Positions 43,022 to 58,091 of a stretch of DNA of 64,000 nucleotides are shown here, in pieces. The stretch covers positions 1,568,001 through 1,632,000 of the forward strand of contig CAVUDW010000003.1 in NCBI GenBank assembly GCA_963740355.1. Reading direction: 5' to 3'. This stretch comes from an uncultured Gemmatimonadaceae bacterium (GTDB lineage: Bacteria > Gemmatimonadota > Gemmatimonadetes > Gemmatimonadales > Gemmatimonadaceae). The position numbers were made by a program, and so were the translations under genes. Numbering within the stretch: the first letter of the stretch is position 1; the number at the start of each line of letters is the position of its first letter. The notes beneath the pieces were generated by a model, which searched no databases, was not told the origin of the DNA, and saw nothing but the letters and a program-made list of their open reading frames with translations.

Positions 43022-43149
43022 CAGTGCACGGAATTCCCGAAATCCGGTGACAGTGCACGGAATTCGAATTCGATGACGCGGCACGAAATCGCGTCAGTAG
43101 CGGTGGCAGCGCACGAGCTCGATGGGAATGCGTGCACTGTCACCGGATT
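43011..43149. repeat. REP/BIME-like cluster (CCGGTGACAGTGCACG)
   Basis: Direct copies at 43011-43036 and 43041-43065, inverted copy at 43124-43149, degenerate copy near 43101. Confidence 0.85.
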
Positions 43150-43231
43150 GGCGGCGGTATCATCGTCCTGTGCACGCTGCCACCTTTCGGCCACTAACTC
43201 GCAGATCCACGCGCCTCAGGAGCCTCACCCG

Positions 43232-44149
43232 ATGAAGTCGTCCGTTGTCGTGAAATTGCCGCTCGCCGGCGCACTGATCCTTGCGATCGCCGCTTGCGGC
43301 GGCTCGCCCAAGCCCGCAGCTGATTCGACGGCGGCCAGCGCCGCGCCGGCTGCAACGGCGGCCGGCGACTTCCGCGCGCCGCTCGGAGTCCAGCTGTGGA
43401 GCTTTCGCACGCTCTCGAAGGATGTCCCGGCGATGCTGTCCACGGTCAGTGGCATGGGCTTCACACACGTCGAGACTGCAGGCCTCTATGGCAAGTCGCG
43501 CACGGAGTTCGCCGAGGCGCTGCGCACAGCCGGGCTGAAGGCCACGTCGATGCATGTGGGCTATGAGGACCTGAAGAACCATCCCGACAGCGTGATCGCC
43601 GACGCCAAGGCGCTCGGTGCGGAGTACGTCGGCATTGCCTGGTACCCGCATGACTCGACCGGCTTCACACCCGCCAATGCCAAGCAAGCGGTGCAGGACT
43701 TCAACGCGTTCGGGAAGACATTGAAGGCGGCGGGGCTCAAGTTCTTCTATCACAACCACGGCTACGAGCCGGTGCCGTTTGGTGACGGCACGTTGCTCGA
43801 CGTGATCATCAAGGAGACCGACCCGGCGCTGGTCAGCTTCGAGATGGATGTGCTGTGGACGTGGCTCCCCGGCCAGGACCCCGTGGGCCTGATCGCCAAG
43901 TATCCAGGTCGCTTCAAGCTGATGCACATCAAGGACATGAAGCCCGGCGTGCCGCGCGGCTCACTCGCCGGCGGCGTTGCTGACTCGCTCAAGGCGCCGA
44001 TCGGTGCTGGACAGGTGGACTGGCCTGCACTGCTGCAGGCTGCAGAGAAGGACGGGTTCGTGGAGTTCTACGTCGAGGACGAGACCACCGATCCGGTCAA
44101 GAATGCGCCGCAGAGCATCGCGTATCTGCGGGGCTTGAAGTACAAGTAG
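43232..44149 (+). CDS. Sugar phosphate isomerase/epimerase (xylose-isomerase-like TIM barrel) lipoprotein
   Basis: Lipobox IAAC; GVQLWS.R, YHNH.YE, FEMD..W, H.KD, YVE. Confidence 0.9.
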   Translation: MKSSVVVKLPLAGALILAIAACGGSPKPAADSTAASAAPAATAAGDFRAPLGVQLWSFRTLSKDVPAMLSTVSGMGFTHVETAGLYGKSRTEFAEALRTAGLKATSMHVGYEDLKNHPDSVIADAKALGAEYVGIAWYPHDSTGFTPANAKQAVQDFNAFGKTLKAAGLKFFYHNHGYEPVPFGDGTLLDVIIKETDPALVSFEMDVLWTWLPGQDPVGLIAKYPGRFKLMHIKDMKPGVPRGSLAGGVADSLKAPIGAGQVDWPALLQAAEKDGFVEFYVEDETTDPVKNAPQSIAYLRGLKYK

Positions 44150-44256
44150 TGCGTTCCGCCGCGAGCCGCTTCGGCGTTCCGCGGCGCGGTCGGATCACGC
44201 GGTCCGAGCTGCTGTCGCGCTTACAGTCCTGACGCAGCCACGCACGCACGAAACGA

Positions 44257-44288
44257 CGAACGGCGCCCGCAAACTCGGGCGCCGTTCG
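44257..44288. terminator. Hairpin / bidirectional terminator
   Basis: CGAACGGCGCCCG-caaact-CGGGCGCCGTTCG between convergent genes. Confidence 0.75.
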
Positions 44289-44373
44289 CATTTCTCCGTA
44301 TTGCTACGTCCAGCCGGTCGCGCACGGTCGTGCGCGTGGCGTGTGCGTCGCGAGCCGTTCCCCTACGTCTAGG

Positions 44374-44928
44374 CTAGAGCGCAGCCGCAAGCGCCGTCAT
44401 GCCGCGTTCAAAGCCGTCATGCGGACCACTCGCTCCAAACATGCCGGACTGTTCGAGCACCACGTAGCCGTGCAGGAACGCCCACACGGCGACGGCGCCG
44501 GCGGTGTCATCGACTTTCGCGGTGCAGTCACCAACCAGTTGCAGGAGCTGATTCCACAGTGCCTTGCGCGCATCCAGATGACCCGCTGCGTATGGCGCCA
44601 CAAGCATGCTGTATCGTGCTGGCGAGGTACGCGCGAAGCTGAGGTAGGCGTCTGCTGCCGTGCGAAGATCGTCACGCGCGCCACGAGCCACGTCCTTTCG
44701 CCGGGCGACTGCGGCTTCAATCGACGAGCGGAGCGACTCAGCGACCTGTTCCGCGATCATCGCCTCCAACGTCGCCAGATCGCCGACGTGTTTGTACAGC
44801 GAGGCCGGGCGCACGCTCAGTGACTCAGCGAGTGCACGCATGCCCAATGAGTCGCGCCCCTGTGTGTCGAGGATGGAGAGCGCCGCGTCGATGATCGCCG
44901 GCGTGGAGAGTTTGGAGGGGTAGGCCAT
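44374..44928 (-). CDS. TetR/AcrR regulator
   Basis: LGMRALAESLSVRPASLYKHV HTH; WAFLHGYV.LE. Confidence 0.92.
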   Translation of the reverse strand: MAYPSKLSTPAIIDAALSILDTQGRDSLGMRALAESLSVRPASLYKHVGDLATLEAMIAEQVAESLRSSIEAAVARRKDVARGARDDLRTAADAYLSFARTSPARYSMLVAPYAAGHLDARKALWNQLLQLVGDCTAKVDDTAGAVAVWAFLHGYVVLEQSGMFGASGPHDGFERGMTALAAAL

Positions 44929-44931
44929 AGA

Positions 44932-45001
44932 GAACACTGTACGTCTTGACATGATCCAAGGCAAGGAGTACAGTGTTCGCCATACAAGGCGTACAGTGTT
45001 C
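44932..45001. promoter_or_regulatory. Three TetR operators overlapping a sigma-70 promoter
   Basis: GAACACTGTAC at 44932 and GTACAGTGTTC at 44968 and 44991; TTGACA(44946)-17 bp-TACAGT(44969). Confidence 0.8.
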
Positions 45002-45022
45002 ACCTTACCAAGGAGCGTGCAT

Positions 45023-45481
45023 ATGAGCACTCCAGATCGCGTTCACGACACCGCGCCACGCAGCGCATTCACTGGCGCCGCAGAGTCCGACCGGGCGTCC
45101 ACGCCAAGCGCTGCGACCGGCGGCGTCCGACTCGTGCTTCAGGCTGAAGGGTTCGCGGTACTTCTGCTGGCCGCCGTGCTGTACCGTCAGGGCGGGCACG
45201 GCTGGGGACTGTTCGCTGCACTGTTCCTGGCACCGGACGTCAGCTTCGTCGCGTACCTCGCAGGACCGCGGGCGGGGGCCACCGCCTACAATGCCTTCCA
45301 CAGCTACGTCGGTCCGATCGCGTTGCTACTCGTCGCGCTCACTGTTCCCAGCGCCGGCGTCATTCCGTTTGTGCACATCTGGGCTGCGCACATCGGTTTC
45401 GACCGCCTGATGCGATACGGCCTGAAGTATCCTGGCGATTTCCATCACACGCATCTGGGCTCGAAGCGGCGGACAGTGTGA
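45023..45481 (+). CDS. DUF4260 family membrane protein
   Basis: LFLAPD.S..AY..GP..GA..YN.FH.Y, W.AHIGFDR...YGLKY...F..THLG. Confidence 0.9.
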   Translation: MSTPDRVHDTAPRSAFTGAAESDRASTPSAATGGVRLVLQAEGFAVLLLAAVLYRQGGHGWGLFAALFLAPDVSFVAYLAGPRAGATAYNAFHSYVGPIALLLVALTVPSAGVIPFVHIWAAHIGFDRLMRYGLKYPGDFHHTHLGSKRRTV

Positions 45482-45653
45482 CATCGTGTCCCTCGGTCGA
45501 ACGCAGTCGCAAGCGCACAACCCGTAGGCGGCCATGGCCGTACTTTCACTGACTAAGCGGGAGTCAGAAAGAGCATGATAAACTTTGCAAATCGGAGTTG
45601 TTTGTGCAGTCTATCAACTGCCTAGCTTGCCAATTGCTGGCTTTACTATGCTC

Positions 45654-45685
45654 TTGACTGAAGAATATGCATGGTATACCATGCA
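45654..45685 (+). promoter_or_regulatory. Sigma-70 promoter with a perfect 18-bp palindrome
   Basis: TTGACT(45654)-17 bp-TACCAT(45677); TGCATGGTATACCATGCA at 45668-45685. Confidence 0.75.
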
Positions 45686-45741
45686 GACAGCTCTAACCTC
45701 TGACCCGTCCGCTCCGCACCCTCGCACCACCCATCGCTGCC

Positions 45742-46263
45742 ATGCCCGCCCGCGCCGACACACAGTGGCTCCGACTCCGGCAGGCCATCGCCCTCCTTGA
45801 GCCGTGGGAGGGACTACAAACGGCCCGCGCCCCGATTCAGGGGTGGGTGTCGACGATCCGTCGGGCGCTCGGGATGAGCAGCGCGCAGCTCGCGGCGCGG
45901 ATGCGAATCAGTCGGCAGTCGCTCGAGGCGCTCGAGGCACGGGAAGTCACCGGCACAGCGACCGTCGATGCACTTCGCCGCGCCGCTGACGCGCTCGATT
46001 GCGACCTGGTGTACGCACTGGTTCCACGGCACGGGTCGCTCGAGTCTGTGGTCACCGCAAAGGCTCGCCGGGTCGCCGAGCGGCTCGTCGGTCGCGCGGG
46101 ACACACGATGACCCTCGAGCAGCAGACCGTGCCCGTGCGTGAGGCGGAGCACCAGATCGCAGTCCTCACCCGTCGCCTTCTGGCCGAGTGGCCGCGCGGC
46201 CTCTGGGATGAGATCGACGATCCGCCCCCCCGCGACGAACGCGCGACAGGCGACGTGGCGTGA
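45742..46263 (+). CDS. Mobile mystery protein A (XRE-type HTH)
   Basis: P..GWV..IR.ALGMS..QLA.R, E..G...L..AA.ALDC.LVYA.VP, HTM.LE.Q, LWD. Confidence 0.9.
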   Translation: MPARADTQWLRLRQAIALLEPWEGLQTARAPIQGWVSTIRRALGMSSAQLAARMRISRQSLEALEAREVTGTATVDALRRAADALDCDLVYALVPRHGSLESVVTAKARRVAERLVGRAGHTMTLEQQTVPVREAEHQIAVLTRRLLAEWPRGLWDEIDDPPPRDERATGDVA

Positions 46264-46904
46264 CGGCGCCGGACGGGCCGGCGACGCCGCCACAGAGGCG
46301 GGGCGCCTTCGCCGTCGGCGCTCACATCGCCGGCGCCACGCCGGTTGATCCCGACGAGGCGGCGGACCTCATTCCCCCCGGCATCGAGACGGTCGAGCAA
46401 CTCAATGCCTTGGAGCAGACGAACATCTTGTCTGCGACGGAGTGGGCGCTGCGTCATCGGCGGCGTCACACGCCAGCGGCGGTGCTCAGCGAAGCGTTCC
46501 TGTTCGACCTGCATCGTCGCATGTTCGACGAAACCTGGCGATGGGCGGGTAAGACTCGCCGCACCGACAAGAACATCGGCGTCCACTGGCCGACCATTCG
46601 CGTCGCGCTGCGCGAGCGCGTCAGGGATGCGCAGTTGTGGCTGACCGAATCGGTATTCTCGCTCGACGAGGTGGCCGTGCGTCTACACCACGGCATCGTG
46701 CTGGTCCATCCCTTCCCGAATGGGAACGGCCGGTGGAGCCGGTTGGTGGCTGACACCTTCATGCATGCACACCGACGTGCACCGTTCGACTGGGGCGCGA
46801 GGAACCTCACGAGCGCAGGCGAGGCACGTGCGGCGTACCTCGCCGCTCTCCGGGCAGCAGATCACGGCGACTTTGCGCCGATCCTGAAATTCGCGCGATC
46901 GTAA
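46260..46904 (+). CDS. Mobile mystery protein B (Fic domain)
   Basis: GATP.DPDE...LIP, LN..EQ.NI, LH.RMF...W.WAG..R...KNIGV, HPFPNGNGRWSR; GTGA coupling with protein A. Confidence 0.92.
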   Translation: MTAPDGPATPPQRRGAFAVGAHIAGATPVDPDEAADLIPPGIETVEQLNALEQTNILSATEWALRHRRRHTPAAVLSEAFLFDLHRRMFDETWRWAGKTRRTDKNIGVHWPTIRVALRERVRDAQLWLTESVFSLDEVAVRLHHGIVLVHPFPNGNGRWSRLVADTFMHAHRRAPFDWGARNLTSAGEARAAYLAALRAADHGDFAPILKFARS

Positions 46905-47110
46905 CTGCTGCGGACCGAGCGCGCTGCTCGAAGCTCAGGTGCGTGGCCGACCGCGCGCGGCAACAACGCGGACCAGGACACTGGCATTGCCCGTTCGTGG
47001 TTAGAGGCTGATCGGCCGAGGGCATCGCGCGCTCGCGCGTCGATCAGTGCCGAGGGTAGCTCAAAACCAAACGACCGCCAGCGCCTCTTCGGCACCGACG
47101 GTCGTTCAGC

Positions 47111-47152
47111 TATTGCCCCTCCTGGGCTCGAACCAGGACTCTTCTGATCCAG
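47111..47152 (-). repeat. att-like copy of the tRNA-Gln 3' half (42 bp)
   Basis: Identical to 54696-54737 and 50634-50675. Confidence 0.95.
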
Positions 47153-47332
47153 GAGGTGGCTAAACGGAAGACATGTGTGCCTGCTGCATCGGCTCCCAAT
47201 GCGATCTCGCTTCGGTGCGCAAGATAAGCCAGACGAGCAGAGTGCATTCCGTGGCGCGCGAGCGGCACGAGTCAACAATCCAGTTCTTCGGGACCTCTCA
47301 GGTTCACACGCTGTCACCCAATGCTGCGTGAT

Positions 47333-48748
47333 TCACGGCGCGAGCCGCACCGTGTCCAGGCTGATGACGTCGGGAATTGAGCGGTCGCCGCCGGCGATCA
47401 CCCGCGCGCAGACTACGACTTCGCGCACGCCACAGGTCACGCGATGACCTACCGCGATCCCATCGAGGTGAACGCGGCCAAGACGGCCCCCGGACGTGAC
47501 ACTGCGCCATGCACCGCCATCAGCAGACTCTCCGTCGAGCGAGGGTACTCTGGAGCGCACCTCGGACGTCGTACCGGGCAACGTGGCGTCCGGCGTCACC
47601 GCGCCGTACATCGACCCATTGCTTGCCTGCGTGATCACGACACGCGCGCCGGTACCGTCCGGAGCACGGAGCGTTACGACGTTCGTGTCACTGGAGTACG
47701 AGGCGTTCGAACCCGTCACGCTCGTATAGCCGCCAACGGCGCGAAGCACGCTGCTGTCGGCGGCGTTCCGCAACAGCTGGTACGGCGTGACCGTGAACGG
47801 CACTCCGGGGAAGATCGGCGTGACGCGCCTCCCTGTGGAGCACATTACGACGCCGCTCGCGGTGAGGCCGCAGGTCACCAGTCCGTTTTCGTCGTTGAGC
47901 AGGCGCACGATGTTTGAATCACTCGGTATCGGCAACCACGTGCGGTTTGCGAAAACGTACCCGCCACCGGTCTCACTCCCGAGCACACCCTTCCAGAGCG
48001 CGCCGCCCGCAGTGCGCCCCACTGAGCCACGGAACTCCACGAACGGTGGGTGCGTGATGTCGTTTGGCACAGTCGAGTCGGGACCGAAGCCCGTCCAGAA
48101 TGCATCGGGGCCGACTCCATTCCAGCACGCAGTGTTGCCATCGGTGAGCAGGGCGCACGCGCCCACGAGGCTAGCCGACAGCGACCGTACGGGTGCCGAG
48201 AACCGCAACCAGCGCGGCGTGGGCTGGAACTGCCCCGGACCGACGCAGGCGACGCGACCGCCCTGCTGGAAACACACTGACTCGGCGCCTGACGTCACGA
48301 CCGTGTCGGCCACCAGCGGTATGCCGCGACGAGCGAGCGTGAATCGACGCGTGAATTCCACCAGGCCGTCACCCCAGTATGTGCCGAGCGACAACACCTG
48401 CGCTGGCGAATCACTCGGCAGCCAGAGCACGCGTACGAGGCCCGTTGCCGTGTCGGCAGCAATCGATAGCGCGCGCCGTTCCCAGTCGCGCGATCGGAGC
48501 CAGCCGGTTGTCGCACTGCTGCGTGAGAGCCGCCAGAACTCTCGCACGCGCTGCCCCGACGCATCCAGCAACTCGAACAGCAACGTGTCAGGCACCGGCG
48601 TGAGGGGCTCCGCCACGCGGATCGTCCCAGGGGAGACGAGGCGCAACGTGTACGCGGAGTTGCCAGTCTGCGGCTCGCTCGCGGTTTCGCCGCATGCGGT
48701 GAATGCGACAATCGCTGCGGCCAGAACCATACGGGCTGAATAGCGCAT
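47333..48748 (-). CDS. Hypothetical lipoprotein with degenerate RCC1-like blades
   Basis: Lipobox FTAC; ACALLTDGNTACW and TCGLTASGVVMC motifs. Confidence 0.6.
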   Translation of the reverse strand: MRYSARMVLAAAIVAFTACGETASEPQTGNSAYTLRLVSPGTIRVAEPLTPVPDTLLFELLDASGQRVREFWRLSRSSATTGWLRSRDWERRALSIAADTATGLVRVLWLPSDSPAQVLSLGTYWGDGLVEFTRRFTLARRGIPLVADTVVTSGAESVCFQQGGRVACVGPGQFQPTPRWLRFSAPVRSLSASLVGACALLTDGNTACWNGVGPDAFWTGFGPDSTVPNDITHPPFVEFRGSVGRTAGGALWKGVLGSETGGGYVFANRTWLPIPSDSNIVRLLNDENGLVTCGLTASGVVMCSTGRRVTPIFPGVPFTVTPYQLLRNAADSSVLRAVGGYTSVTGSNASYSSDTNVVTLRAPDGTGARVVITQASNGSMYGAVTPDATLPGTTSEVRSRVPSLDGESADGGAWRSVTSGGRLGRVHLDGIAVGHRVTCGVREVVVCARVIAGGDRSIPDVISLDTVRLAP

Positions 48749-48967
48749 GATGATAATATACCGTCGCACTGGCCTCGAGGTCACGCCAGCCGCGCTACGG
48801 CCCGGCTCAAGAACAACACGCTTCCCCGTGCGCTGTGATATGTCGAGCGAGATGCTTCAACGAGGCCCTTGTCACGAAAGAGCCAGAAAGCGAGTTGCCC
48901 TCCTTGCACGCGCTCAGGCTCGCCGAGCAGACCTGCAGAGTTTCGCGCCGCGCTGCACATTGACCCG

Positions 48968-50371
48968 ATGATCGTCTTTCCAAATCTCTTCCCGTCGCGC
49001 GATCGCCGACGGGCACACTGGGCGCTGGCGATTGCGATCGTCACCGCGATGTCCCCTGCCCCGCCGGCCGGCGCGCAGACGGGCAGCGATAGCGGGCGGC
49101 TGGACCAACGCATCGATGTCGTGACGCCACTCGCGCCTGAACTGGCCGCCTTCGGCAGCCATTCCGTCGGCGTCCGCACCATCACCGTCACCGACCGCAA
49201 TCGCCCCGACGTCGTTCACACCAGACCCGGCGAAGCCACGGCGCGCAGCGACCGATCGCTCACACTCGAGGTGTGGTATCCAGCGCAGCCCGCGCGCGCG
49301 CCGGTCCTCGGCACGTACCGCGCCATCATGCGTGATCCCACGGTCACCGTGACGCTGATTGGCCGCGCGCAACGAGACGCGATGCCAGTTGCGGCGGGCG
49401 GCCCGTTTCCGCTGGTGATCATCTCGCACGGCTACCCCGGCAACCGGTTCCTGCTCAGTCACCTGGGAGAGAACCTGGCCAGCAAAGGGTACGTCGTTGT
49501 GTCGATCGATCACACCGGAAGCACGTACGACGATCTGCAGGCGTTCGGCAGCACGCTCTATCATCGCCCGTACGATCAGTTGTTCGTGCTGAATGAGATG
49601 GCGCGGCTGGGTGCCGCGCAGTCCGGCAGCTTCCTGGCCGGGCACGTCGACGCCGGTCGCACCGGCATCATCGGCTATTCGATGGGTGGATACGGCGCGG
49701 TGAACGTGATCGGCGGCGGATTCCGCGCGGCAGCGGCCACGATGCCCGGTGCACCGCCCAATCGCCTGCTGCTGGAGCGCAGCGCCGACAACGCGGCCTA
49801 TCGTGAACGCGGCGGTGATGCGCGTATCAAGGCCGCGGTGGCCATCGGCCCGTGGGGCCTGCCGGCCGGTGTCTGGGATTCCGCCGGGCTGGCCGGCATT
49901 CGAACGCCTACCCTGTTCGTTGCCGGCAGCGCCGACGAGGTCTCAGGCTACGAGTCCGGGACCCGCGCCATCTTCCGCGGTGCCGTGAATGCCGATCGCT
50001 ACCTGCTGACATTTCTCGGCGCGGGCCACAACGCGGGTGCGCCGATTCCCGCGCCCGCGGAGAGCTACTCGTGGTCCGACTCACTGAAGTCGTATCCCTT
50101 CACGCACTATGCCGACCCAGTCTGGGACACCCGGCGCATGAACAACATCCTTGCACACTTCGTGACCGCGCATTTCGACGTGCAACTGAAGGGAGACAGC
50201 ACGCGACTGCCGTACATGCAGGTGGTACCGGCCGGGAAGGATGCCGTGTGGGCCATCGATCGCGCGGGCACGCCGCAACCCACGCATACGTACTGGAAAG
50301 GGTTCAAGCGAGGCACGGCGACGGGATTGATGCTGGAACACGAGGCCTCCGGAGAGCGTGCACGCCGGTAG
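48968..50371 (+). CDS. Secreted alpha/beta hydrolase (dienelactone hydrolase / PAF-AH-like)
   Basis: GVRT, R.L.LEVWYP, PLVIISHG.PG, GYSMGG, G.ADEV, GAGHN. Confidence 0.88.
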   Translation: MIVFPNLFPSRDRRRAHWALAIAIVTAMSPAPPAGAQTGSDSGRLDQRIDVVTPLAPELAAFGSHSVGVRTITVTDRNRPDVVHTRPGEATARSDRSLTLEVWYPAQPARAPVLGTYRAIMRDPTVTVTLIGRAQRDAMPVAAGGPFPLVIISHGYPGNRFLLSHLGENLASKGYVVVSIDHTGSTYDDLQAFGSTLYHRPYDQLFVLNEMARLGAAQSGSFLAGHVDAGRTGIIGYSMGGYGAVNVIGGGFRAAAATMPGAPPNRLLLERSADNAAYRERGGDARIKAAVAIGPWGLPAGVWDSAGLAGIRTPTLFVAGSADEVSGYESGTRAIFRGAVNADRYLLTFLGAGHNAGAPIPAPAESYSWSDSLKSYPFTHYADPVWDTRRMNNILAHFVTAHFDVQLKGDSTRLPYMQVVPAGKDAVWAIDRAGTPQPTHTYWKGFKRGTATGLMLEHEASGERARR

Positions 50372-50633
50372 GTGCGTCACTCGCTGACAGGTTGGCCTGG
50401 TGGTGACGGTAGAGCCGTGCGACGCCGACCGAGACCGATGCGACGAGCGGCGAACACGCGGCGAAGCGAGCGATGACGCGGCCATCGAAGCGGTCTGCCC
50501 TGCTGGCGCAGGCGTAGGGTTGGCGGTTATGCCTCGCCTATGACGCTGGCCATGCATCGCATGACCAGCTGAGACCAGAGTCATAAAACAAAAAGGCTGG
50601 CGGCGCGAAGTGCTTGCGCCACCAGTCTTTCCG

Positions 50634-50675
50634 TATTGCCCCTCCTGGGCTCGAACCAGGACTCTTCTGATCCAG
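50634..50675 (-). repeat. att-like copy of the tRNA-Gln 3' half
   Basis: 42-bp core; identity with the tRNA locus extends to 50 bp (50627-50676 vs 54689-54738). Confidence 0.95.
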
Positions 50676-51128
50676 AGCGTGGCTGAACAGAAAAGGTGTG
50701 TGACTGGCTTCGGCTCCCGATGCTATCGGACGGAGGTGAGCAGGCGAGCCAAATCGGCCCATCCCCGCCAGCGCGCAGACTTCGCCGTCGACGTCCAAGC
50801 GGGATCGCTGTACACTGGTCATTCTCGACTTGGCGGAGACACAAGCACAGCGAGAACGCAATCGTCAGCGTTTCGGTCTCATTCTTGGGCTCTGTGAACC
50901 ACCAGAAGCCCCAGTGGTTCGTGAGCGCGCTGCTCCGCCGCTGGGACGCTCGCCCCAATCTGCAGGTCCGGCAACACGACGGCACAACCCGTCTCCGACA
51001 CAATCCGATGCATCGGGTCAGATCACGGCGAACTCGCACCGTCACCCCCACGGACGATCTCGCGGCTGGGTCCACCTCGGTCCGGCAGCGCGAGACTAGA
51101 ATTCGCGCATGTCCCGCGATCTCGTCGC

Positions 51129-52310
51129 ATGCTGATCCACGTCGACCTCGTCGTCGTGTACATGATCATCTGTATCGTGCAGGGCGCCACCGCTGCCGGC
51201 ATGCTGCTCGCGCACGGCCGGACACGCCCTTCCGCGCGCTGGACGGCGCTCTGGCTTCTGGCCGTGACACTGCAGGTCATCGACTACACCCTGAGCCGAA
51301 GTGGGACGTACTATCGTCACCACGAGCTGTACTTCCTGCCTCTTTTCTACACGCTGGCGCTGGGCCCCCTGCTGTTCGGTTCCGTTCGCAGCGCACGGAC
51401 GACGGAGGCTTCGCTGGGACCCGTGCACTTCATCCCAGTGGTCGTCCAGGCGGCGTTCTACGTGATCATGTGCGTGCAGCCGGTCGAGACGAAGGCGCAG
51501 GTGTGGATGTCGCTGCACAAGCCCGTCACGCGGTGGCTGGAGTATTACGGCGCGCTGGTGTCCCTCGGCCTCTACCTGGCCGCAGCGTGGCGACTAGTCG
51601 GTGGCGACGAACCGGCTGCGCGGCGCCTGCGGCAGGGTGGCAGCGTGACCGCTGTCTTTCTCGGCGCGTCCGCCATCGACCCGCTCGTGAACGCGCACTA
51701 CCTGCCCGTCGGCGCGCCGCGCTTCTGGCTGTTTTCCCTCGGGCTGCCGCTGCTCGGCGGCGCGGTGGCACTCTGGGCGATGTTCGGTGCCCAGGTCCAG
51801 CAGGCCGCCGGACTGCTCGGGCTCCGTGAGCCGTCGATGCCGTCGGATCCGGACCCCGTCGCACCCGCTGCCGCCGGAATCAATGAAGCCCGCCGGGCAC
51901 CCGATCCAGCGCTGGTGGCGCGTCTCCGTACGGCGCTCGAGCGCGACCGAGTGTACCGCGATTCCGAACTCACCCTCGATGCCTTGGCGGCGCGCGTCGG
52001 GGTGTCAGCGAACGTCGCCTCGCAGGCACTGAATGCGGGGCTGGGCGGGTCATTCAGCGAACTGATCAACCGGTTTCGCCTCGCCGATGTCATGACGGCG
52101 CTGGATCGGCAGGATGTTCGGTCACACAGTGTGCTCGCGGTGGCGTTTGCGGCGGGCTTCAACTCGAAGTCCACCTTCAATCGCGTCTTCAGGGCGCACA
52201 CGGGGATGACGCCGCGCGAGTACCGGAACCGACCGCCGGCAGGGCGCGACGCCGGCCCCGGCGACACGGCACGTCCCGCGACAGGTCCCGACTTCCACGC
52301 GAGCGCGTGA
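51129..52310 (+). CDS. Membrane-anchored AraC family regulator
   Basis: About 7 TM N-terminus; YRDSELTL..LA, SQALN...G.SF..LIN.FR, AGFNSKSTFNRVFR..TG.TP.EY. Confidence 0.92.
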   Translation: MLIHVDLVVVYMIICIVQGATAAGMLLAHGRTRPSARWTALWLLAVTLQVIDYTLSRSGTYYRHHELYFLPLFYTLALGPLLFGSVRSARTTEASLGPVHFIPVVVQAAFYVIMCVQPVETKAQVWMSLHKPVTRWLEYYGALVSLGLYLAAAWRLVGGDEPAARRLRQGGSVTAVFLGASAIDPLVNAHYLPVGAPRFWLFSLGLPLLGGAVALWAMFGAQVQQAAGLLGLREPSMPSDPDPVAPAAAGINEARRAPDPALVARLRTALERDRVYRDSELTLDALAARVGVSANVASQALNAGLGGSFSELINRFRLADVMTALDRQDVRSHSVLAVAFAAGFNSKSTFNRVFRAHTGMTPREYRNRPPAGRDAGPGDTARPATGPDFHASA

Positions 52311-52388
52311 GCACGTCCCACCCTACACATTGGGGCGCAAACGCCGCAGCACACGCGCACTGTTGGGCATGACCCCTCCACCGCCACC

Positions 52389-54299
52389 ATGCCCATGCTC
52401 CAAATGATGCACCCATGTCGCCGGACGATCACGCTCCTGACCGCCGGCACAGCCATTGTCGCCAGCGGTAGTGCCACGCCGCTCGCCGCGCAGCGAGCTG
52501 ACCTCGCGGCGGACATCCGCCGCGTCGAAACCAGCCTCGCCCCGAACGTCCCCGTGGCCAGCATGCCGGGCTGGCGACTCGAAGACCGCATGCGCGTGCA
52601 TGGGGTGCCGGGCGTCAGCATCGCCGTGATCCGGAACTATCGGGTCGTGTGGGCCAAGGGCTACGGTGTGGCCGATTCGGCCACGAAGCGTCGTGTGACA
52701 CCGTTCACCGTGTTTTCGGCCGGGTCGATCTCGAAGTTCGCCACGGCCATCGTTGCACTGCGCTTGGCGGCGGAACGCCGCGTCTCGCTCGACGCCCCGA
52801 TCAACACGATCCTCACGCACTGGAAACTGCCCGAGTCGGAGCGCACGGCCGCGCGCCCCGTCACCCTCGCGCTGCTGTTGAGTCATCGGGGTGGCACGAG
52901 CCAGTCGTCCTACTTCGGGTTTGCGCCACGCTCTGCGGGTGACCGGACGCCGTACCCGTCCGTAGTAGACGTTCTGCAGGGGGCGCCGGGCACGGAGAGC
53001 CGACCCGTCGTGGTGAACCAGCCGGTCGGGGAAGGGTTTGCGTACTCCGGCGGCGGGTACATGGTGGCTCAGCTGGCGCTCACTGACGCCACCGGCCGCG
53101 CGCCCGACGCGTACGCCGCGCTGGCGGCTGAAACGGTATTCACGCCACTCGGCATGCGTTCGAGCACCTTCGCGCAGCCGCTGCCGCCGTCGTTCGCGTC
53201 GCGCGCGGCGTGGGCCTACTCCGACGCGCCGTGGTTCCTCGGCATGCCGTACGTCTACCCGCAGCAGGCGCCGGCCGGCCTGTACGCGACCCCCACCGAT
53301 CTCGCGCAACTCGTCATCGAGGTGCAGCAGGCGTATCGCGGCCGGGGACGGCTCCTCGATTCGAGCGACGTGCATCGCATGCTGACGCCGCAGGCGGATG
53401 TCTCGCTCGGCGCGTACCGGGAGCAGATCGGCCTCGGCGCATTCCTGTTCCAGCGGGCCGACCGTTCAGGCGATGCGACGCGCTACTTCGAGCACATGGG
53501 CGTCAACGCCGGGTTCATCGCCTACGCCATGGGCAGCGTCACCGGTGGGAACGGCGTCGTCATCATGATGAACAACGACGGGGGCGCGGCGGAACTCGGA
53601 CGTGAGATCCGGCGCGCTGTCGCCAAGGCGTACGGCTGGCCGGGGTTCCTGCTGGATCCGCTGCGGCCTGTGCGCGGCGCATCGACCCTACTCGCGGACA
53701 TAGAGGGCCGCTACCAGCGAGGCCCGGACGCGGTGCTGCAGTTTCGTCGGGGACGTGGCGAGTTCGCGGCATACCTCGAGGAAGTTATCTCGGAGGGCCT
53801 CGGCGTCGGCGCGCCGATTCTTGCCGTGCCCATCGGGCATGATTCCATCGGCTTCACTGACTTTCCCGGCACCGCAGTCGTGCAGCGCGACAGCGTCGGG
53901 CGCGTCATCGGCCTGCGCATCCCGTATGCAGACCGTCCGATCCCGAAGCTGACGCCGGACCACCAGCTGCCGGGCGAGCTGTTGCGCGCGGGGCGATGGC
54001 CGGAGGCGGAGGCGGCCTACCGCGAACTCGCGCTGGACGAGTCCCGCATCACCTACATGGCGTACACACTGCTACGACGCCGACCGGCGAAGGACCATGA
54101 CCTGCAGTCGGCGCGCGTGTTGCTCACCGTGGCCGATGCGCAGCACCCCGCGTCAGCCGTCGTCCAGGTGCGCTGGGCCGAGTATCACCTGCTGCGGCAT
54201 GACACGACGTCGGCCATTGCCGCGTATCGCGTCGCACAGGCCCGTGACTCGAGCGACGCGAGCATCCGCGACGCGATCCATCGGCTCGGCAAACGCTGA
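52389..54299 (+). CDS. Secreted serine hydrolase (class C beta-lactamase-like) with TPR-like C-terminus
   Basis: VPGVSIAV, F..GSISK (SxxK), LLSH.GG, F.YSGGGY, PLGM, HMG.N.GF; start uncertain. Confidence 0.88.
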   Translation: MPMLQMMHPCRRTITLLTAGTAIVASGSATPLAAQRADLAADIRRVETSLAPNVPVASMPGWRLEDRMRVHGVPGVSIAVIRNYRVVWAKGYGVADSATKRRVTPFTVFSAGSISKFATAIVALRLAAERRVSLDAPINTILTHWKLPESERTAARPVTLALLLSHRGGTSQSSYFGFAPRSAGDRTPYPSVVDVLQGAPGTESRPVVVNQPVGEGFAYSGGGYMVAQLALTDATGRAPDAYAALAAETVFTPLGMRSSTFAQPLPPSFASRAAWAYSDAPWFLGMPYVYPQQAPAGLYATPTDLAQLVIEVQQAYRGRGRLLDSSDVHRMLTPQADVSLGAYREQIGLGAFLFQRADRSGDATRYFEHMGVNAGFIAYAMGSVTGGNGVVIMMNNDGGAAELGREIRRAVAKAYGWPGFLLDPLRPVRGASTLLADIEGRYQRGPDAVLQFRRGRGEFAAYLEEVISEGLGVGAPILAVPIGHDSIGFTDFPGTAVVQRDSVGRVIGLRIPYADRPIPKLTPDHQLPGELLRAGRWPEAEAAYRELALDESRITYMAYTLLRRRPAKDHDLQSARVLLTVADAQHPASAVVQVRWAEYHLLRHDTTSAIAAYRVAQARDSSDASIRDAIHRLGKR

Positions 54300-54697
54300 G
54301 ACGAGCGCGACGCAGTTCCGACCCCATCAGCGCTTGGAGCACCGCTGAAAGATCTCCAACGCCTGCGGCGTCCCGGGGGCATCGATCTACCAATGGGCCC
54401 AGTGCAGGACAGGCACCGCCGTCGATCTGCTGTCAGAACACTTTCGATGTCCCTTTGTCAGAGAACTTCGTGATCGACCATGCGACACTCCAGGGTCACG
54501 GCGGCGGGAACGCCATGACGGAGCACACGACGATTCGACGACCCGAGCCCGTTCCTGCCGTGCGGTGCTGCAGCAGGCGAATAAGCTGACGCACGGTGGC
54601 GACGACTGCGGTCACACAGGTTGTGACTCTTCATGATCGCAGCCGCAAACAGAAACCCCGGCGGCGCCTAAGTGCAGGCACCGCCGGGCTTTCCGTA

Positions 54698-54770
54698 TTG
54701 CCCCTCCTGGGCTCGAACCAGGACTCTTCTGATCCAGAATCAGACATGTTGCCAGTTACACCAAGGGGCA
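54698..54770 (-). tRNA. tRNA-Gln(CTG)
   Basis: TGCCCCTTGGTGTAACTGGCAACATGTCTGATTCTGGATCAGAAGAGTCCTGGTTCGAGCCCAGGAGGGGCAA forms a full cloverleaf; CCA not encoded. Confidence 0.97.
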
Positions 54771-54930
54771 CCACAACCCGACCACCTCGCGGCCGCCGGA
54801 TTCATCAAAACTAGACCCCACAACACCCGGCTTCAAGGGGACACGACAGTTCCACCACAATCCACTGCGATCCGTCACAATCCCGGCCTGCTGAGTCGGA
54901 CACCCGCCCTGCCCGGCTAACTTGCGAGCA

Positions 54931-56268
54931 GTGACCCGTCTTCTCCGATACACCCGACCCGCCGCCTTCCTCCTCCTCGGCGCTTTCCTCACTACCGCCT
55001 GCCGGCCCGGATGGGACGCCCTCGGCGCTTCCCCACCGCAGGCACAGGCCAACGGCGTCACCTTTGCCGAAGCCCTGCACCGCCGCTACCTCGGCGTCGA
55101 GCGGGCACCGTTCTACGCCGCGGCCCGCGTCAAACTCGGCAAACGCGCCCTCTCGCCATCCGGTGTGTTCGATGACACCACCGCGTGGACGTCGCGACCG
55201 GATGCGAAGAACCGCTTCCTGATGGCGGAAGGGGTCTCGACCTCGGATGGCCGCTACCGCTTCACGCCTCGCGCCAACGCACCGTTCCCTGATCGACTCG
55301 CCGATGCACGACATCTCACGCAACTCACCAAGCTCGCCAACGACGGCGAATACGAGTGGCGGACGACCGTGGACTTCGCGCTCGGCACACTGACACCAAC
55401 CGATTGGGGCAACGGCTTTCGCGCGCTGCTCGGGAGCGCCGAAGGACGCAGCGATGGTGACCTGCGCGCCGATGTGCGCAGCACGATGCCGCGCACGACT
55501 GCCGCACTCGGCCGCATGTTTTCGCTCGACACGCTGCATGCGCAACGGCTTTCCGACGGATCGACGGCAGTGACGATCGTGACTGACGTCCACCCGGAAT
55601 GGCTGAAGAAGGAATTCCCGCTGTACTCGAAGTTCATCGAGAAATACGTCGGCCCCGCGGCGTACCACATCGTGTTGCGCGATGCACGCGGCTCGCGATG
55701 GGTCGACGTCAACGCGACCGATCGCGGGCTGACGCTGAAGCTGCGTGTGCTGCACGGCGGCCTGGTGCCGCTGGACGGCACCACACAGCCGATGCCCGAC
55801 ACGCTGCGGCTGACGATGGACGCGAGCACGAAGTATTCGATCTTCACGATCGGCATGCGCGGCATGCAGGGCACGGTGGTGTTCCTGCGCAGCGCGAATG
55901 AGCGGGGCTGGGCGCTCCGGTTCGACAAGGCACCCGAATGGCAGCTACCGCTCTTCACCGGATCGATGCTGCGCACGCCATTGCGACGGCCCTTCGATCA
56001 GGGTGGCATCGTGGGCAAGGTGTCGTTCCGGCTCGGTGCGGGCGGCCAGACCTACATCACGCGAGACTTTCGCGTTGCGGTGCAGGAGTCGGCCGTCACC
56101 CGCTTTCTGGGCGGGTTGAGCGGGTCGGCCTTCAGCGAGTTCGATGGGCCAGCGGAGAAGGAAGAAAATCGCTTCAATGCCGAGCTATTCCAGGCGATGC
56201 GCGATGACCTGCGCGGGCTGCGCTACGGCGCGGGATCTCTGGTCAGTCCGTTGCGCGTAGGACCGTGA
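54931..56268 (+). CDS. Hypothetical lipoprotein
   Basis: Lipobox LTTAC; long ORF with typical codon usage; start 54922 or 54931. Confidence 0.7.
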   Translation: MTRLLRYTRPAAFLLLGAFLTTACRPGWDALGASPPQAQANGVTFAEALHRRYLGVERAPFYAAARVKLGKRALSPSGVFDDTTAWTSRPDAKNRFLMAEGVSTSDGRYRFTPRANAPFPDRLADARHLTQLTKLANDGEYEWRTTVDFALGTLTPTDWGNGFRALLGSAEGRSDGDLRADVRSTMPRTTAALGRMFSLDTLHAQRLSDGSTAVTIVTDVHPEWLKKEFPLYSKFIEKYVGPAAYHIVLRDARGSRWVDVNATDRGLTLKLRVLHGGLVPLDGTTQPMPDTLRLTMDASTKYSIFTIGMRGMQGTVVFLRSANERGWALRFDKAPEWQLPLFTGSMLRTPLRRPFDQGGIVGKVSFRLGAGGQTYITRDFRVAVQESAVTRFLGGLSGSAFSEFDGPAEKEENRFNAELFQAMRDDLRGLRYGAGSLVSPLRVGP

Positions 56269-56300
56269 CGTGGACGCCGGCGACACGACCGGATACGACG

Positions 56301-56333
56301 AGGGGCGACAAATCCATTGGATTCATCGCCCCT
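56301..56333. terminator. Hairpin between the convergent lipoprotein gene and tRNA-Ala
   Basis: AGGGGCGA...TCGCCCCT stem with inner AATCC/GGATT. Confidence 0.55.
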
Positions 56334-56421
56334 GCAATCAGCTGGGCCACGCGCGCTGTCATTGGAACTCTCCGTCCTACCGAACAGCGGCGGGCATATT
56401 TGCTCTGTCAATCACACAATG

Positions 56422-56494
56422 TGGAGCTGAGGGGAATCGAACCCCTGACCTCTGCAGTGCGATTGCAGCGCTCTACCAACTGAGCTACAGCCCC
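56422..56494 (-). tRNA. tRNA-Ala(CGC)
   Basis: GGGGCTGTAGCTCAGTTGGTAGAGCGCTGCAATCGCACTGCAGAGGTCAGGGGTTCGATTCCCCTCAGCTCCA; G3:U70 alanine identity pair. Confidence 0.97.
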
Positions 56495-56681
56495 GACTCT
56501 GTAGGCGCCTGACCGAAACATTGTATCGGCACCTCGCACAGTCAAGTGAAGCTATCCACCCAGGCCCATCCGGTCAACTGTCCCGGGTCGCTGGGGGAAC
56601 TTCAGCTGTTGCACGAACATCTGTACCCCAGACGCTCCAAGAGTTCCAAAGGAAACATCCTTTTCCCGCACGCCGGCCTCA

Positions 56682-58091
56682 ATGCACCAACTCGACTCCC
56701 AGTTCGTCCAGGATCAGCTGGCCCTCCGTACGGTCCCGATCAACGGCCTCCGGCTGGTACCCGAGGCAGAGTACGTCCTCTACTGGATGCAGAGCACGCA
56801 GCGGCTGGAGGAGAACTGGGCCCTGCGCCAGGCGACGCTCGAGGCGGACCGACTGGGCAAGCCGCTCGTGATCTACCAAGGGCTGAATCCGCACTACGAG
56901 TTTGCCAGCGACCGCACCCACGCGATGATCGTGGGCAATGCAGTGGAGCTTGAACGCCGCGCCAAGGAGCTGGGGTATACCTATCTCTTCCACCTGCGTC
57001 ACACCGTGGTGGGCGACAATCGCGTCGTGGACCGGCTAGCTGCTCGGGCCGTGATGGTCGTGACGGACGCCTTCCCGACCGCTGGAATCGACGCGCGATC
57101 GGGGCGTGTCGCCGCCCGGCTTCCCTGCCGGATGTTGGCGGTGGAGTCACATGCGGTGGTGCCCGCTGCAGCCTTCCAGAAGGAGGAATACGCGGCGCGC
57201 ACCATTCGCCCCAAGATCGCGAAGCTGCGCGACCTGTCGCTGGAGCCGGTGCAGGATCAGCCGCCGAAAAAGGCAGTCAGCGCCAAGCTGCGCGCGTCAC
57301 TGGATGTCGACGCGCTGGCCCTCTCGAAGATCGACGTCGCGAGCGAGATCGCCCGCTGTGCGATCGATCATTCGGTCGGCGCGGTAGAGGGCACAAAACC
57401 CGGCTACGCAGCGGCCCGGGCTCGCCTCGACGCCTTCTGTGGCGATGCGCTTCAGGACTACGCCGAACGCCGCAACGATCCCGGCGATACCGACGGGTCG
57501 AGCCGACTCTCGCCGTACCTGCATTTCGGTCAGATCAGCGCTGCTGAAGTCGCGCGGACCGTGCGCGATCGCGGGGCACCAGAGCAGGTGGAGAAGTTCT
57601 ACGACGAACTGCTCACGTGGCGAGAACTGTCGCTGAATTTCTGCGTTCGCAATCGTGCCTTTGCTTCGCTGGACGGGCTGCCGAACTGGGTCCGTGAGAA
57701 CATGGCACGGCACGCCGGGGACAAGCGCGACTTCGTGTATGACCTAGCCACCTTCGAGGCTGCGGCGACGCACCATCCGCTCTGGAATGCGGCACAGCGC
57801 GAGCTGATGGCGACGGGATCCATCCACAACGTGATGCGGATGTACTGGGGCAAGTACATCGTGCTCTGGAGCGCCAGCTTCGAGGAGGCGTTGTCGATCA
57901 TGATCACGCTCAACAACAAGTACGGGCTCGATGGGCGCGATCCCAGCAGCTACGGCGGGATCCAGTGGTGCCTTGGCAAGTTCGATCGGCCGTGGACGCG
58001 ACGACCGGTGCTGGGCACGATCCGTTACATGTCGATCGACCTCGCCTACAAGAAGTTCGATGCGAGGACGTACGAGCGGCGCTGGAGCTGA
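56682..58091 (+). CDS. Deoxyribodipyrimidine photolyase, class II CPD type
   Basis: VLYWM...R...NWAL, EEYAARTIRPKI, S.LSPYLHFGQIS, MRMYWGK, LDGRDP..Y.G..W. Confidence 0.92.
   Translation: MHQLDSQFVQDQLALRTVPINGLRLVPEAEYVLYWMQSTQRLEENWALRQATLEADRLGKPLVIYQGLNPHYEFASDRTHAMIVGNAVELERRAKELGYTYLFHLRHTVVGDNRVVDRLAARAVMVVTDAFPTAGIDARSGRVAARLPCRMLAVESHAVVPAAAFQKEEYAARTIRPKIAKLRDLSLEPVQDQPPKKAVSAKLRASLDVDALALSKIDVASEIARCAIDHSVGAVEGTKPGYAAARARLDAFCGDALQDYAERRNDPGDTDGSSRLSPYLHFGQISAAEVARTVRDRGAPEQVEKFYDELLTWRELSLNFCVRNRAFASLDGLPNWVRENMARHAGDKRDFVYDLATFEAAATHHPLWNAAQRELMATGSIHNVMRMYWGKYIVLWSASFEEALSIMITLNNKYGLDGRDPSSYGGIQWCLGKFDRPWTRRPVLGTIRYMSIDLAYKKFDARTYERRWS

Follow-up and report, generated by a model that had tools for sequence, protein, structure and literature searches.

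A conserved arm beside tRNA-Gln fragments probably marks a family of tRNA-specific elements and their integrase-less cassettes in a Gemmatimonadaceae genus

Introduction

In streptococci, cis-mobilisable elements (CIMEs) of the ICESt1 type have lost their integration genes and kept attL and attR, and they need an integrase supplied in trans for mobilisation (PMC5704250, excerpted text). Such elements, together with their accretion with incoming elements (PMC5704250), are the closest described concept for the locus analysed here: an array of small gene cassettes behind a tRNA-Gln(CTG) gene in a 64,000-nt stretch of DNA (hereafter the window) from an uncultured Gemmatimonadaceae bacterium (GCA_963740355.1, contig CAVUDW010000003.1, positions 1,568,001-1,632,000). 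Two of the cassettes begin, next to a fragment of the tRNA gene, with a similar non-coding 'arm', which an initial annotation of the window had read as a conserved attP arm or recombinase-binding element defining a family of cassettes. Below we argue that this arm is probably the element-side (attP-type) arm of a family of tRNA-Gln(CTG)-specific elements, and that the window cassettes are probably integrase-less, CIME-like units that accreted at the tRNA gene.

Several other systems share parts of this layout. Islands in tRNA genes (tDNA islands), catalogued by Islander, include anticodon-loop-type att sites and tandem arrays. Attachment sites of the lambda attP type are two-armed, and their integrases carry an arm-binding domain. 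Clusters of attC sites without an integrase are termed CALINs. In the tycheposon islands of Prochlorococcus, as excerpted from 10.1101/2020.12.28.424599, repeated integration at one tRNA displaces older elements, with partial tRNAs and integrase fragments scattered along the island; the cargo is niche-adaptive, the elements' own recombinases and replication modules serve to define them, and there are one or two per genome. The Dehalococcoides islands at ssrA, the tmRNA (transfer-messenger RNA) gene, integrate site-specifically at the end of a small RNA gene (PMC3146451, excerpted text). Among the papers returned by a search on Gemmatimonadota genomic islands, tRNA and integrases, judged by title and abstract opening, none dealt with arrays such as these.

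Results and Discussion

Two arms beside tRNA-Gln fragments

The window contains three exact copies of the 3' 42 nt of tRNA-Gln, the last of them within the intact gene (Table 1), and so has the direct repeats of a tRNA-gene island. (Coordinates are those of the whole stretch; gene calls are our own, from open reading frames and codon-position G+C.) The remaining two copies are fragments, each of which is directly adjoined by an arm, as had been proposed. The alignment of 47156-47206 with 50679-50727 was reproduced, with 40 of 49 identities and one 2-nt gap, as was the weaker similarity beyond it, which continues for ~15 nt to 47221 and 50742; the whole region of weak similarity extends to 50746 in arm 1 and 47225 in arm 2. 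The local score of 47153-47225 against 50676-50746 is 28. None of 2000 dinucleotide-preserving shuffles reached this value (mean 7.4, sd 1.3, maximum 14), so that the alignment is significant against shuffled controls, and the best of 2962 windows drawn at random from the same sequence scored only 13.

The arm does not look derived from the 5' half of the tRNA: scored against this half, the arm family has a mean of 3.21, compared with 2.76 for shuffled arms, with arm 2 alone somewhat high (matched by 10 of 2000 shuffles). The cargo of the two units is unrelated. Cassette 1 carries an AraC regulator and a beta-lactamase-fold protein, and cassette 2 a putative lipoprotein and an alpha/beta hydrolase. 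The initial annotation had named a dispersed repeat, unconnected with tRNA fragments, as the alternative that would overturn its reading. This did not come out: the arm was found at two places only in the 5.4-Mb genome, both of them at the tRNA-Gln fragments, whether searched for by BLAST, by a degenerate pattern or by an nhmmer profile (which had both window arms among its sources).

Cassettes that keep both ends

On the 3' side of all three cores (tRNA sense strand) lies a strong hairpin with a U-tract, with folding energies of -27.8 to -41 kcal/mol (z -5.6 to -5.9). An arm, a core, a terminator and the second-arm motifs described below are retained in both cassette 1 and cassette 2, which thus have the two att ends expected of a CIME. 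Their genes, judged by Pfam and NCBIfam, are cargo only, which corresponds to the loss of integration and transfer genes in such elements. No homolog of the cargo of either cassette was found in the other loci fetched by the time of comparison.

The third cassette has lost its arm end, and its affiliation comes from a relative: in the congener that we designate G101 (relatives are referred to by such handles), a complete cassette with arm and terminator at its ends matches 45723-47193 at 83% identity. Its two genes encode mobile mystery proteins A (TIGR02612, 146.8 bits) and B (TIGR02613, 217.7 bits), and also form internal cassettes in G010 and G110. The terminator types recur as well. Type B was found at seven further junctions, and in G101 is contiguous with the mystery-A/B cassette; type E was found at two further junctions; and type A, which arrived behind the intact tRNA-Gln with cassette 1, also adjoins the integrase gene of the G103 island discussed below.

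The chromosomal flanks are conserved among relatives (73-86% identity) and the arrays between them differ in number and content, as expected of an island with variable content between fixed flanks. In G083 and G104 the TIM-barrel flank gene (84-86% identity over 944-950 nt) directly abuts the last tRNA-Gln fragment.

Table 1. Features of the tRNA-Gln array in the window, and the integrase-bearing island of a relative
Feature	Position	Strand	Sequence or content	Basis and remarks
Intact tRNA-Gln(CTG)	54698..54770	-		ARAGORN; Rfam tRNA 59.2 bits; attB/attL end of array
Repeated core in intact tRNA-Gln(CTG)	54696-54737 (plus-strand numbering)		3' 42 nt, including 2 nt beyond the gene	
tRNA-Gln fragment 1	50634..50675	-	Exact 42-nt core copy	Junction of cassette 1 and cassette 2
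tRNA-Gln fragment 2	47111..47152	-	Exact 42-nt core copy	Junction of cassette 2 and mystery-A/B cassette
Arm 1 (probable element side, cassette 1)	50676..50708		AGC GTGGCTGA ACAG ... TGTGTGAC TG	Family profile 17.4 bits
Arm 2 (probable element side, cassette 2)	47153..47185		GAG GTGGCTAA ACGG ... TGTGTGCC TG	Family profile 19.7 bits
Terminator hairpin type A, behind intact tRNA	54649..54696	-		Scan 54688-54657; fold -41 kcal/mol, z -5.9
Terminator hairpin type E, behind fragment 1	50588..50633	-		Fold -27.8 kcal/mol, z -5.6; tRNA-side end of cassette 2
Terminator hairpin type B, behind fragment 2	47065..47110	-		Fold -36.7 kcal/mol, z -5.9; tRNA-side end of mystery-A/B cassette
Cassette 1, arm to terminator	50676-54696			
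Cassette 2, arm to terminator	47153-50633			
Second (terminator-side) arm, cassette 1	54606..54648		GTCACA 54611-54616, TGTGAC 54622-54627	
Second (terminator-side) arm, cassette 2	50539..50587		TATGAC 50539, CATGAC 50560, inverted GTCATA 50580	
Cassette 1 cargo	50709..54605	+	AraC-family regulator 51129-52310; beta-lactamase-fold serine hydrolase 52389-54299	Pfam, NCBIfam, codon-position G+C
Cassette 2 cargo	47186..50538		483-aa putative lipoprotein without family 47333-48784 (-); alpha/beta hydrolase 48869-50371 (+)	
Third cassette, arm end lost	45723..47064	+	'Mobile mystery protein A' 45742-46263; B (Fic domain) 46260-46904	
G103 island, 70.8 kb	tRNA-Gln C23:135816; fragment C23:65030		Family arm AATGTGGCTGAGAGGGGCCGTAGAGATGACCGG follows the fragment at the far end	
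DNA between array and conserved flank	44150..45722		TetR-family gene 44374-45030 (-); DUF4260 gene 44951-45481 (+)	Pfam
Conserved chromosomal flank	43073..44149	+	Xylose-isomerase-like TIM-barrel gene	Pfam

An arm family restricted to tRNA-Gln junctions

A search with core plus arm in 101 genomes of the bacterial family gave eight matches in the congener G010, seven of which lie within 20 kb of one contig. When an arm-only pattern was run against 20 genomes of the genus, all 16 zero-mismatch matches adjoined a tRNA-Gln fragment. With up to one mismatch, matches were found in 12 of the 20 genomes and 26 of the 31 adjoined a fragment (two of these decayed); the others comprised one match truncated by a contig end and four chance-like matches in coding-like sequence without a fragment. 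Conversely, a recognisable arm, judged by eye, follows each of the 36 fragments other than the tRNA itself in 14 loci of the genus. A scan of GTDB (one genome per species) with an 18-mer spanning the core end and arm start returned 77 stretches, and a fragment lies upstream in 24 of the 25 from Gemmatimonads and in none of the 52 from other taxa, many of which share one conserved coding context. Metagenomes added 28 loci, again arrays, giving 83 fragment-arm junctions and 63 distinct arms over all sources. The search that the initial annotation had suggested across relatives has therefore yielded matches at tRNA-Gln fragments, variable cargo and, in G103, an integrase-bearing member. These results support its reading of an att arm that defines a family; a recombinase is presumed to bind that arm.

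Over the 63 arms the consensus reads AATGTGGCTGA, then n-C-a-G, a variable spacer and TGAC-Y-G, the two blocks being set as AATGTGGCTGA-N15-TGAC, and there is no conservation past about +32. Since many arms were collected with the exact AATGTGGCTGA pattern, conservation of that block is overstated; fragments located by the core alone carry the same arm. Arm 1 has TGTGAC at 50699-50704, and arm 2 has changes at two family positions. An inverted repeat between core CTCTTCTG and arm CAGAAGAA is matched at at least six of eight positions in 31 of the 63 arms, with its centre off the symmetry of the anticodon loop.

The form of this conservation bears on two alternatives. In the first, homologous recombination across the ~75 nt of shared core and arm would suffice without any site-specific enzyme, the arm serving to lengthen the homology. 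Core and proximal arm do provide 50-75 nt of near-identity between junctions, and most array genomes have no detected dedicated integrase. However, homology of this kind should conserve the arm evenly, yet we see two short blocks with a variable spacer, and neither the motif cluster beyond the terminator nor the existence of an integrase island with the same ends (both described below) is explained. We consider this route very improbable. In the second, the arm would belong to a transcript, tRNA-like or regulatory, that comprises arm, fragment and terminator. A terminator is indeed kept at each fragment, and a subset of arms ends in GGGGCA, which by eye could pair with the acceptor 3' strand. 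Against this, a search with Rfam at E<=1 over 44000-57000 found only the two true tRNAs, ARAGORN made no pseudo-tRNA call, and no likeness of the arms to the tRNA 5' half was seen. The single candidate stem in the arm (C-R-G ... C-Y-G) was rejected, as it shows no covariation (11/13 against 6/3, Fisher p 0.44). An RNA role thus appears less credible still.

In 63 fragments, one T-stem pair is T-A in 48, A-T in 11, G-T in two and unpaired in two, and this retained pairing implies that the elements carry functional tRNA halves.

The sole Gemmatimonad 18-mer match without a tRNA fragment (L120 ~6985-7030, on a second G109 contig) is near-palindromic, CCTCAGTCACACG GATCCAGAAT GTGGCTGAGG, with both arm motifs facing each other across anticodon-loop letters. 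There was no recombinase gene within 7 kb, and it may be a stray att-like site. In other genera of the bacterial family, tRNA-Gln fragments are accompanied by an arm of another kind, conserved over ~60 nt (AGGGGCCCCGTTAGG...AACTCCGGCAAGTT...), with three in a row in G048 (L035 999, 3557 and 5047) and one in G062 (L037 468). In L186 (~5700-5830; G117:C11), two tRNA-Gln-like copies lie ~150 nt apart, and the fragments at 10108 and 14750 have only partly family-like arms.

A second arm beyond the terminator

A motif of the arm, GTCACACA, had been reported to recur inverted near the other end of cassette 1. We find it at 54611-54618, followed by TTGTGAC at 54621-54627, and it is part of a second conserved arm beyond the terminator hairpin. 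Across 56 non-redundant sites, TRTGAC/GTCAYA occurs 22 times in forward and 13 times in reverse orientation within two 40-nt bins, -120 to -41 from the core, compared with 0-4 in each of the other non-arm bins. Similarly, 19 of the 62 flanks contain GTCACA/TGTGAC, where random genomic windows (mostly coding DNA) give a mean of 2.9. On these counts the tRNA-Gln site is two-armed, like a lambda-type attP. Furthermore, 54606-54800 is 91% identical (177/195) to a stretch that begins 32 nt past the stop codon of the integrase gene in the G103 island.

By eye, the terminator hairpins behind fragments fall into about five recurring types. The type beside the intact tRNA-Gln varies between genomes, as would be expected if the newest arrival supplies the terminator. 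We also observed that terminator types combine freely with different cargos and arms; the mystery-A/B cargo, for instance, is joined to different terminator modules according to genome. This suggests that att modules are exchanged between cassettes.

Cassettes recur at different positions

In the genus, arrays contain up to eight cassettes in a row behind tRNA-Gln (up to eight in 20 kb) of 0.7-5 kb each, with several genes in both directions. The cargo includes HepT/MNT, Fic and helix-turn-helix (HTH) pairs, dehydrogenases, amidohydrolases, an aminotransferase and hydrolases, as well as MarR, AraC and GntR regulators, Ser/Thr and histidine kinases, and insertion sequence (IS) insertions. Cassette types were defined by single-linkage clustering, with one cluster over-merged. 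One shared type is third in G010, sixth in G101 and third in G110; a second is sixth in G010 and first in G112; a third is eighth in G010 and both first and fourth in G101. Because common types occupy different ordinal positions, and the terminator beside the tRNA differs, the cassettes behave as units. The stretch behind tRNA-Gln is a main site of gene turnover in the genus, for toxin-antitoxin pairs, hydrolases, regulators and kinases and, in one genome, a 71-kb metal-resistance island.

Contigs assembled from public reads come from relatives only (at most 0.12 of words). In some of them (runs X3 and X6; window 48645-50705) the hydrolase gene of cassette 2, its terminator, the core and the arm start are found in a different context; one continues into dissimilar sequence past the arm. 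The hydrolase alone may be a cassette in these relatives. Run X6 contains two joints that go back, from 50687 to 48896 and from 50704 to 45723. These could be other cassette orders, tandem copies or circles, and equally assembly joins across the repeated core.

An integrase-bearing member of the family

Among weak PF00589 matches in the genus, two lie directly behind tRNA-Gln, in G103 and G108. The G103 gene is at the tRNA end of a 70.8-kb island whose far end has a tRNA-Gln fragment followed by a family arm (Table 1). Its open frame extends up to 794 aa (734 aa in a database entry), ending just before the stretch that matches 54606 onwards. The PF00589 match scores 26.7 bits on the protein and 29.4 bits in six-frame translation. 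R80, H186, R189 and Y222 of the aligned piece, corresponding to the catalytic R...H-x-x-R...Y signature, are invariant across six recombinases (this protein, XerD, IntI and three island integrases), which marks it as a divergent tyrosine recombinase. A word-filtered search of a 5.8-billion-sequence collection found only three relatives at E<=1e-5, all marked PF00589, and a PDB sequence search with the C-terminal 433 aa gave no match at E<=1. The island carries arsenic, copper and RND/P-type metal-efflux genes; no conjugation genes were recognised in its 70.8 kb.

Integrases of this type were found in three of the 20 genus genomes: G103, G108, where it also adjoins tRNA-Gln, and G109, where the gene lies in two pieces on separate contigs. 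Beyond the genus, two genera have distant homologs (24-28% identical) beside tRNA-Gln. At the tRNA-Gln site of other genera there are also different arm families and P4-like integrases; in G062 and G035 we observed larger units in which such an enzyme (Arm-DNA-bind_3 plus Phage_integrase) adjoins the arm. A 578-aa open reading frame beside an arm in G109 (L043 5933-7669), in the position usual for the integrase of an island, was considered as an integrase and rejected: it has no Pfam match even at E 10, and a counterpart adjoins the arm of the G103 island, so that it is cargo. By eye its C-terminus resembles what we take to be a PD-(D/E)xK nuclease motif.

Several observations weigh against the interpretation of the arms as attP-type sites of a family to which the window cassettes belong. 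No unit of the window contains a recombinase matching PF00589, PF00239 or PF07508, and the 28 metagenome loci have none bar short remnants in four. The G103-type integrase was not found in this genome (94.5% complete), nor in 17 of the 20 genus genomes, including the array-rich G010 (100% complete) and G101; most related genomes are draft metagenome-assembled genomes, in which absence means 'not found'. Mobilisation in trans is consequently something we infer, and many arrays may be inactive. The candidate enzyme itself falls just under the curated Pfam cut-off (27.1 bits), and its AlphaFold model is unusable (mean pLDDT 44.8, pTM 0.26). Moreover, both window arms rank in the lower quartile of the family against the consensus (13 and 15 of 63), and they alone read GAG and AGC where 53 of the 63 read AAT, in a comparison set biased to exact AATGTGGCTGA. 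Finally, recent common descent could account for part of the arm's conservation.

Some of the same observations would fit the arrays being scars only, left by successive integrase-bearing islands that have shrunk, with arms that are alike from close kinship and are no longer read by anything. In the excerpted account of PMC5704250, tandems of this kind classically arise when elements accrete and then decay. Integrase remnants (59-82 aa, 60-72% identical) do occur at the terminator side of four metagenome arrays, this genome has no detected G103-type integrase, and its arms are among the less typical ones. However, 63 arms are conserved in blocks with sharp bounds and are unrelated past +32, a matching motif cluster is retained on the other arm, cassettes of 1-4 kb reappear elsewhere in the arrays with both of their ends, and the cores of the window are still perfect over 42 nt. 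We regard scars alone as an unlikely account, which nevertheless overlaps with ours, the definition of a CIME being that of a decayed element with its ends preserved. In the window itself, tblastn with the G103 integrase on 54000-54800 gave nothing at E<=10, and nucleotide homology to the G103 island begins only past its integrase gene.

Other recombinases of this genome

The tyrosine recombinases of this genome are XerC, XerD, an integron integrase, a P4-like integrase and a divergent integrase at tRNA-Pro; it has no serine recombinases, and no recombinase was found among the cassette genes of the relatives' arrays. Two of these enzymes were considered for the arrays and rejected. The 444-aa P4-like integrase (L056 7354-8688) is ~30% identical to the tRNA-Gln island integrases of other genera, but it belongs to a 16-kb island (C2:2356850-2372859) bounded by a 52-nt direct repeat that, by eye, is the 3' part of a tRNA-Arg(CCT)-like gene. 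The 626-aa enzyme at tRNA-Pro (C3:565533-567413) has no BLASTP similarity to the G103 enzyme.

The integron integrase (C3:2343145-2344245; L055 7145-8245, minus strand) is genuine, scoring 385.9 bits to TIGR02249 against a cut-off of 265, with the extra segment of that family visible. The arrays also look integron-like, with small cassettes in shuffled order and many toxin-antitoxin pairs, and it could be imagined that this enzyme serves them, the junctions being attC-like and the tRNA-Gln attI-like. The array (C3:1615111-1622770), however, lies ~720 kb from intI instead of beside it. The hairpins are ordinary U-tract terminators, not the attC fold; no RYYYAAC/GTTRRRY pair was seen at the junctions by eye, against the consensus; and the fold of the arm lacks covariation. 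In addition, every junction repeats 42-45 nt of the tRNA, which is the classical att signature, cassettes have several genes in both directions, and a dedicated integrase occupies the same site in G103. In G101, which has six cassettes and is 90% complete, no integron-type match was seen. The array is not an integron, its boundaries being classical att sites, and service by the integron integrase is accordingly very unlikely. Integron-integrase-type matches of like score and length occur in most genus genomes. Beside intI of this genome lie small same-strand genes (DUF433, DUF6933, glyoxalase, beta-lactamase fold), and no attC-like repeats were seen on the side searched.

A model for the growth of the array

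The reading that we favour, of attP-type arms and accreted CIME-like cassettes, suggests the following mechanism. The reconstructed site of ~200 bp would comprise, on the plus strand, the second arm (two or three TRTGAC/GTCAYA plus TATGGCT-like motifs), the terminator hairpin, the last 42-45 nt of the tRNA (anticodon loop to 3' end), and then GTGGCTGA, ~15 nt and TGAC. The conserved blocks would be protein-binding sites, with a G103-type enzyme as their presumed reader. A tyrosine integrase would exchange strands somewhere within the tRNA-identical core, whereupon the incoming element would provide the tRNA gene with a new 3' half and a new terminator. The old 3' half and old terminator would be displaced downstream, and the arm of the newcomer would now stand before the old 3' half. 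Repeated integration would build a tandem array in which every junction consists of terminator, fragment and arm. The cassettes would be non-autonomous members or derivatives needing an integrase in trans, for which the enzyme of the G103 island is the best candidate. Because no G103-type integrase was found in this genome, the window cassettes are probably stranded here without their enzyme. On this model the two repeats, otherwise puzzling, would be explained as the termini of mobile units.

The loss of integration genes with retention of ends is shared with the CIMEs and tandem accretion at tRNA 3' ends described in the excerpts of PMC5704250. Compared with the ICESt1-type elements of that text (PMC5704250), the present units are of very small size (0.7-5 kb) and occur in large numbers (up to eight in 20 kb), their mobilisation is presumed, their host belongs to a genus of Gemmatimonadaceae, and the integrase is of a rare, divergent type. 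The putative partner in G103 has no recognised conjugation genes and hence is not a recognised integrative and conjugative element (ICE). The likeness to tycheposons, from the excerpts of 10.1101/2020.12.28.424599, is one of layout alone: stacking with partial tRNAs is common to both, and here the result is orderly arrays of mini-units. The Dehalococcoides ssrA islands likewise integrate at the end of a small-RNA gene and differ in target gene and host, as far as the excerpts of PMC3146451 extend.

A further comparison is with tDNA islands in general. As in these, the repeat is the 3' part of the tRNA from the anticodon loop, an intact tRNA stands at one end, the partner is a tyrosine integrase, here probably with an arm-binding domain, and the large member carries metal-resistance cargo. 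In contrast to them, the integrase gene is missing from every window unit, and a shared arm links the units instead. With integron arrays and CALINs the locus has in common rows of small, shuffled, promiscuous cassettes that are rich in toxin-antitoxin genes and often have no adjacent recombinase. It differs in that two sequence-specific arms and a tRNA-derived core form the boundary, in place of a folded attC, and in that cassettes have several genes in both directions and their own regulators, with IntI 720 kb away.

The tRNA-Gln fragment followed by GTGGCTGA, ~15 nt and TGAC offers a signature for integrase-less islets that island finders keyed to integrases overlook. If the mini-cassettes are mobile in trans, they would constitute a compact system for study in which the att site is separated from the integrase, and would represent an integron-like means of capturing genes in a soil phylum that has been little studied. 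It is conceivable, if rather doubtful, that the arrays are a working gene-capture platform, in which mini-cassettes of cargo plus a ~200-bp two-armed att module are inserted, excised and reshuffled behind tRNA-Gln by a rare, island-borne integrase. Were this so, the platform would be a tRNA-anchored functional parallel to the integron, with classical att sites.

Features bordering the array

A conserved 448-aa gene between tRNA-Gln and tRNA-Ala (54922-56268) was considered as a hidden recombinase and rejected; it belongs to no family, and its N-terminus resembles a lipoprotein signal by eye. On the other side, G083 and G104 have no counterpart of the DNA at 44150..45722 next to their flank gene, which follows directly on the last fragment. 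A profile search for a decayed core or arm within it found none, and it is probably older inserted DNA without recognisable ends. Between its divergent TetR-family and DUF4260 genes there are a 27-nt inverted repeat (44927-44953 / 44957-44983) and a 23-nt tandem repeat (44962-45007), which together are probably the operator of the TetR-family repressor.

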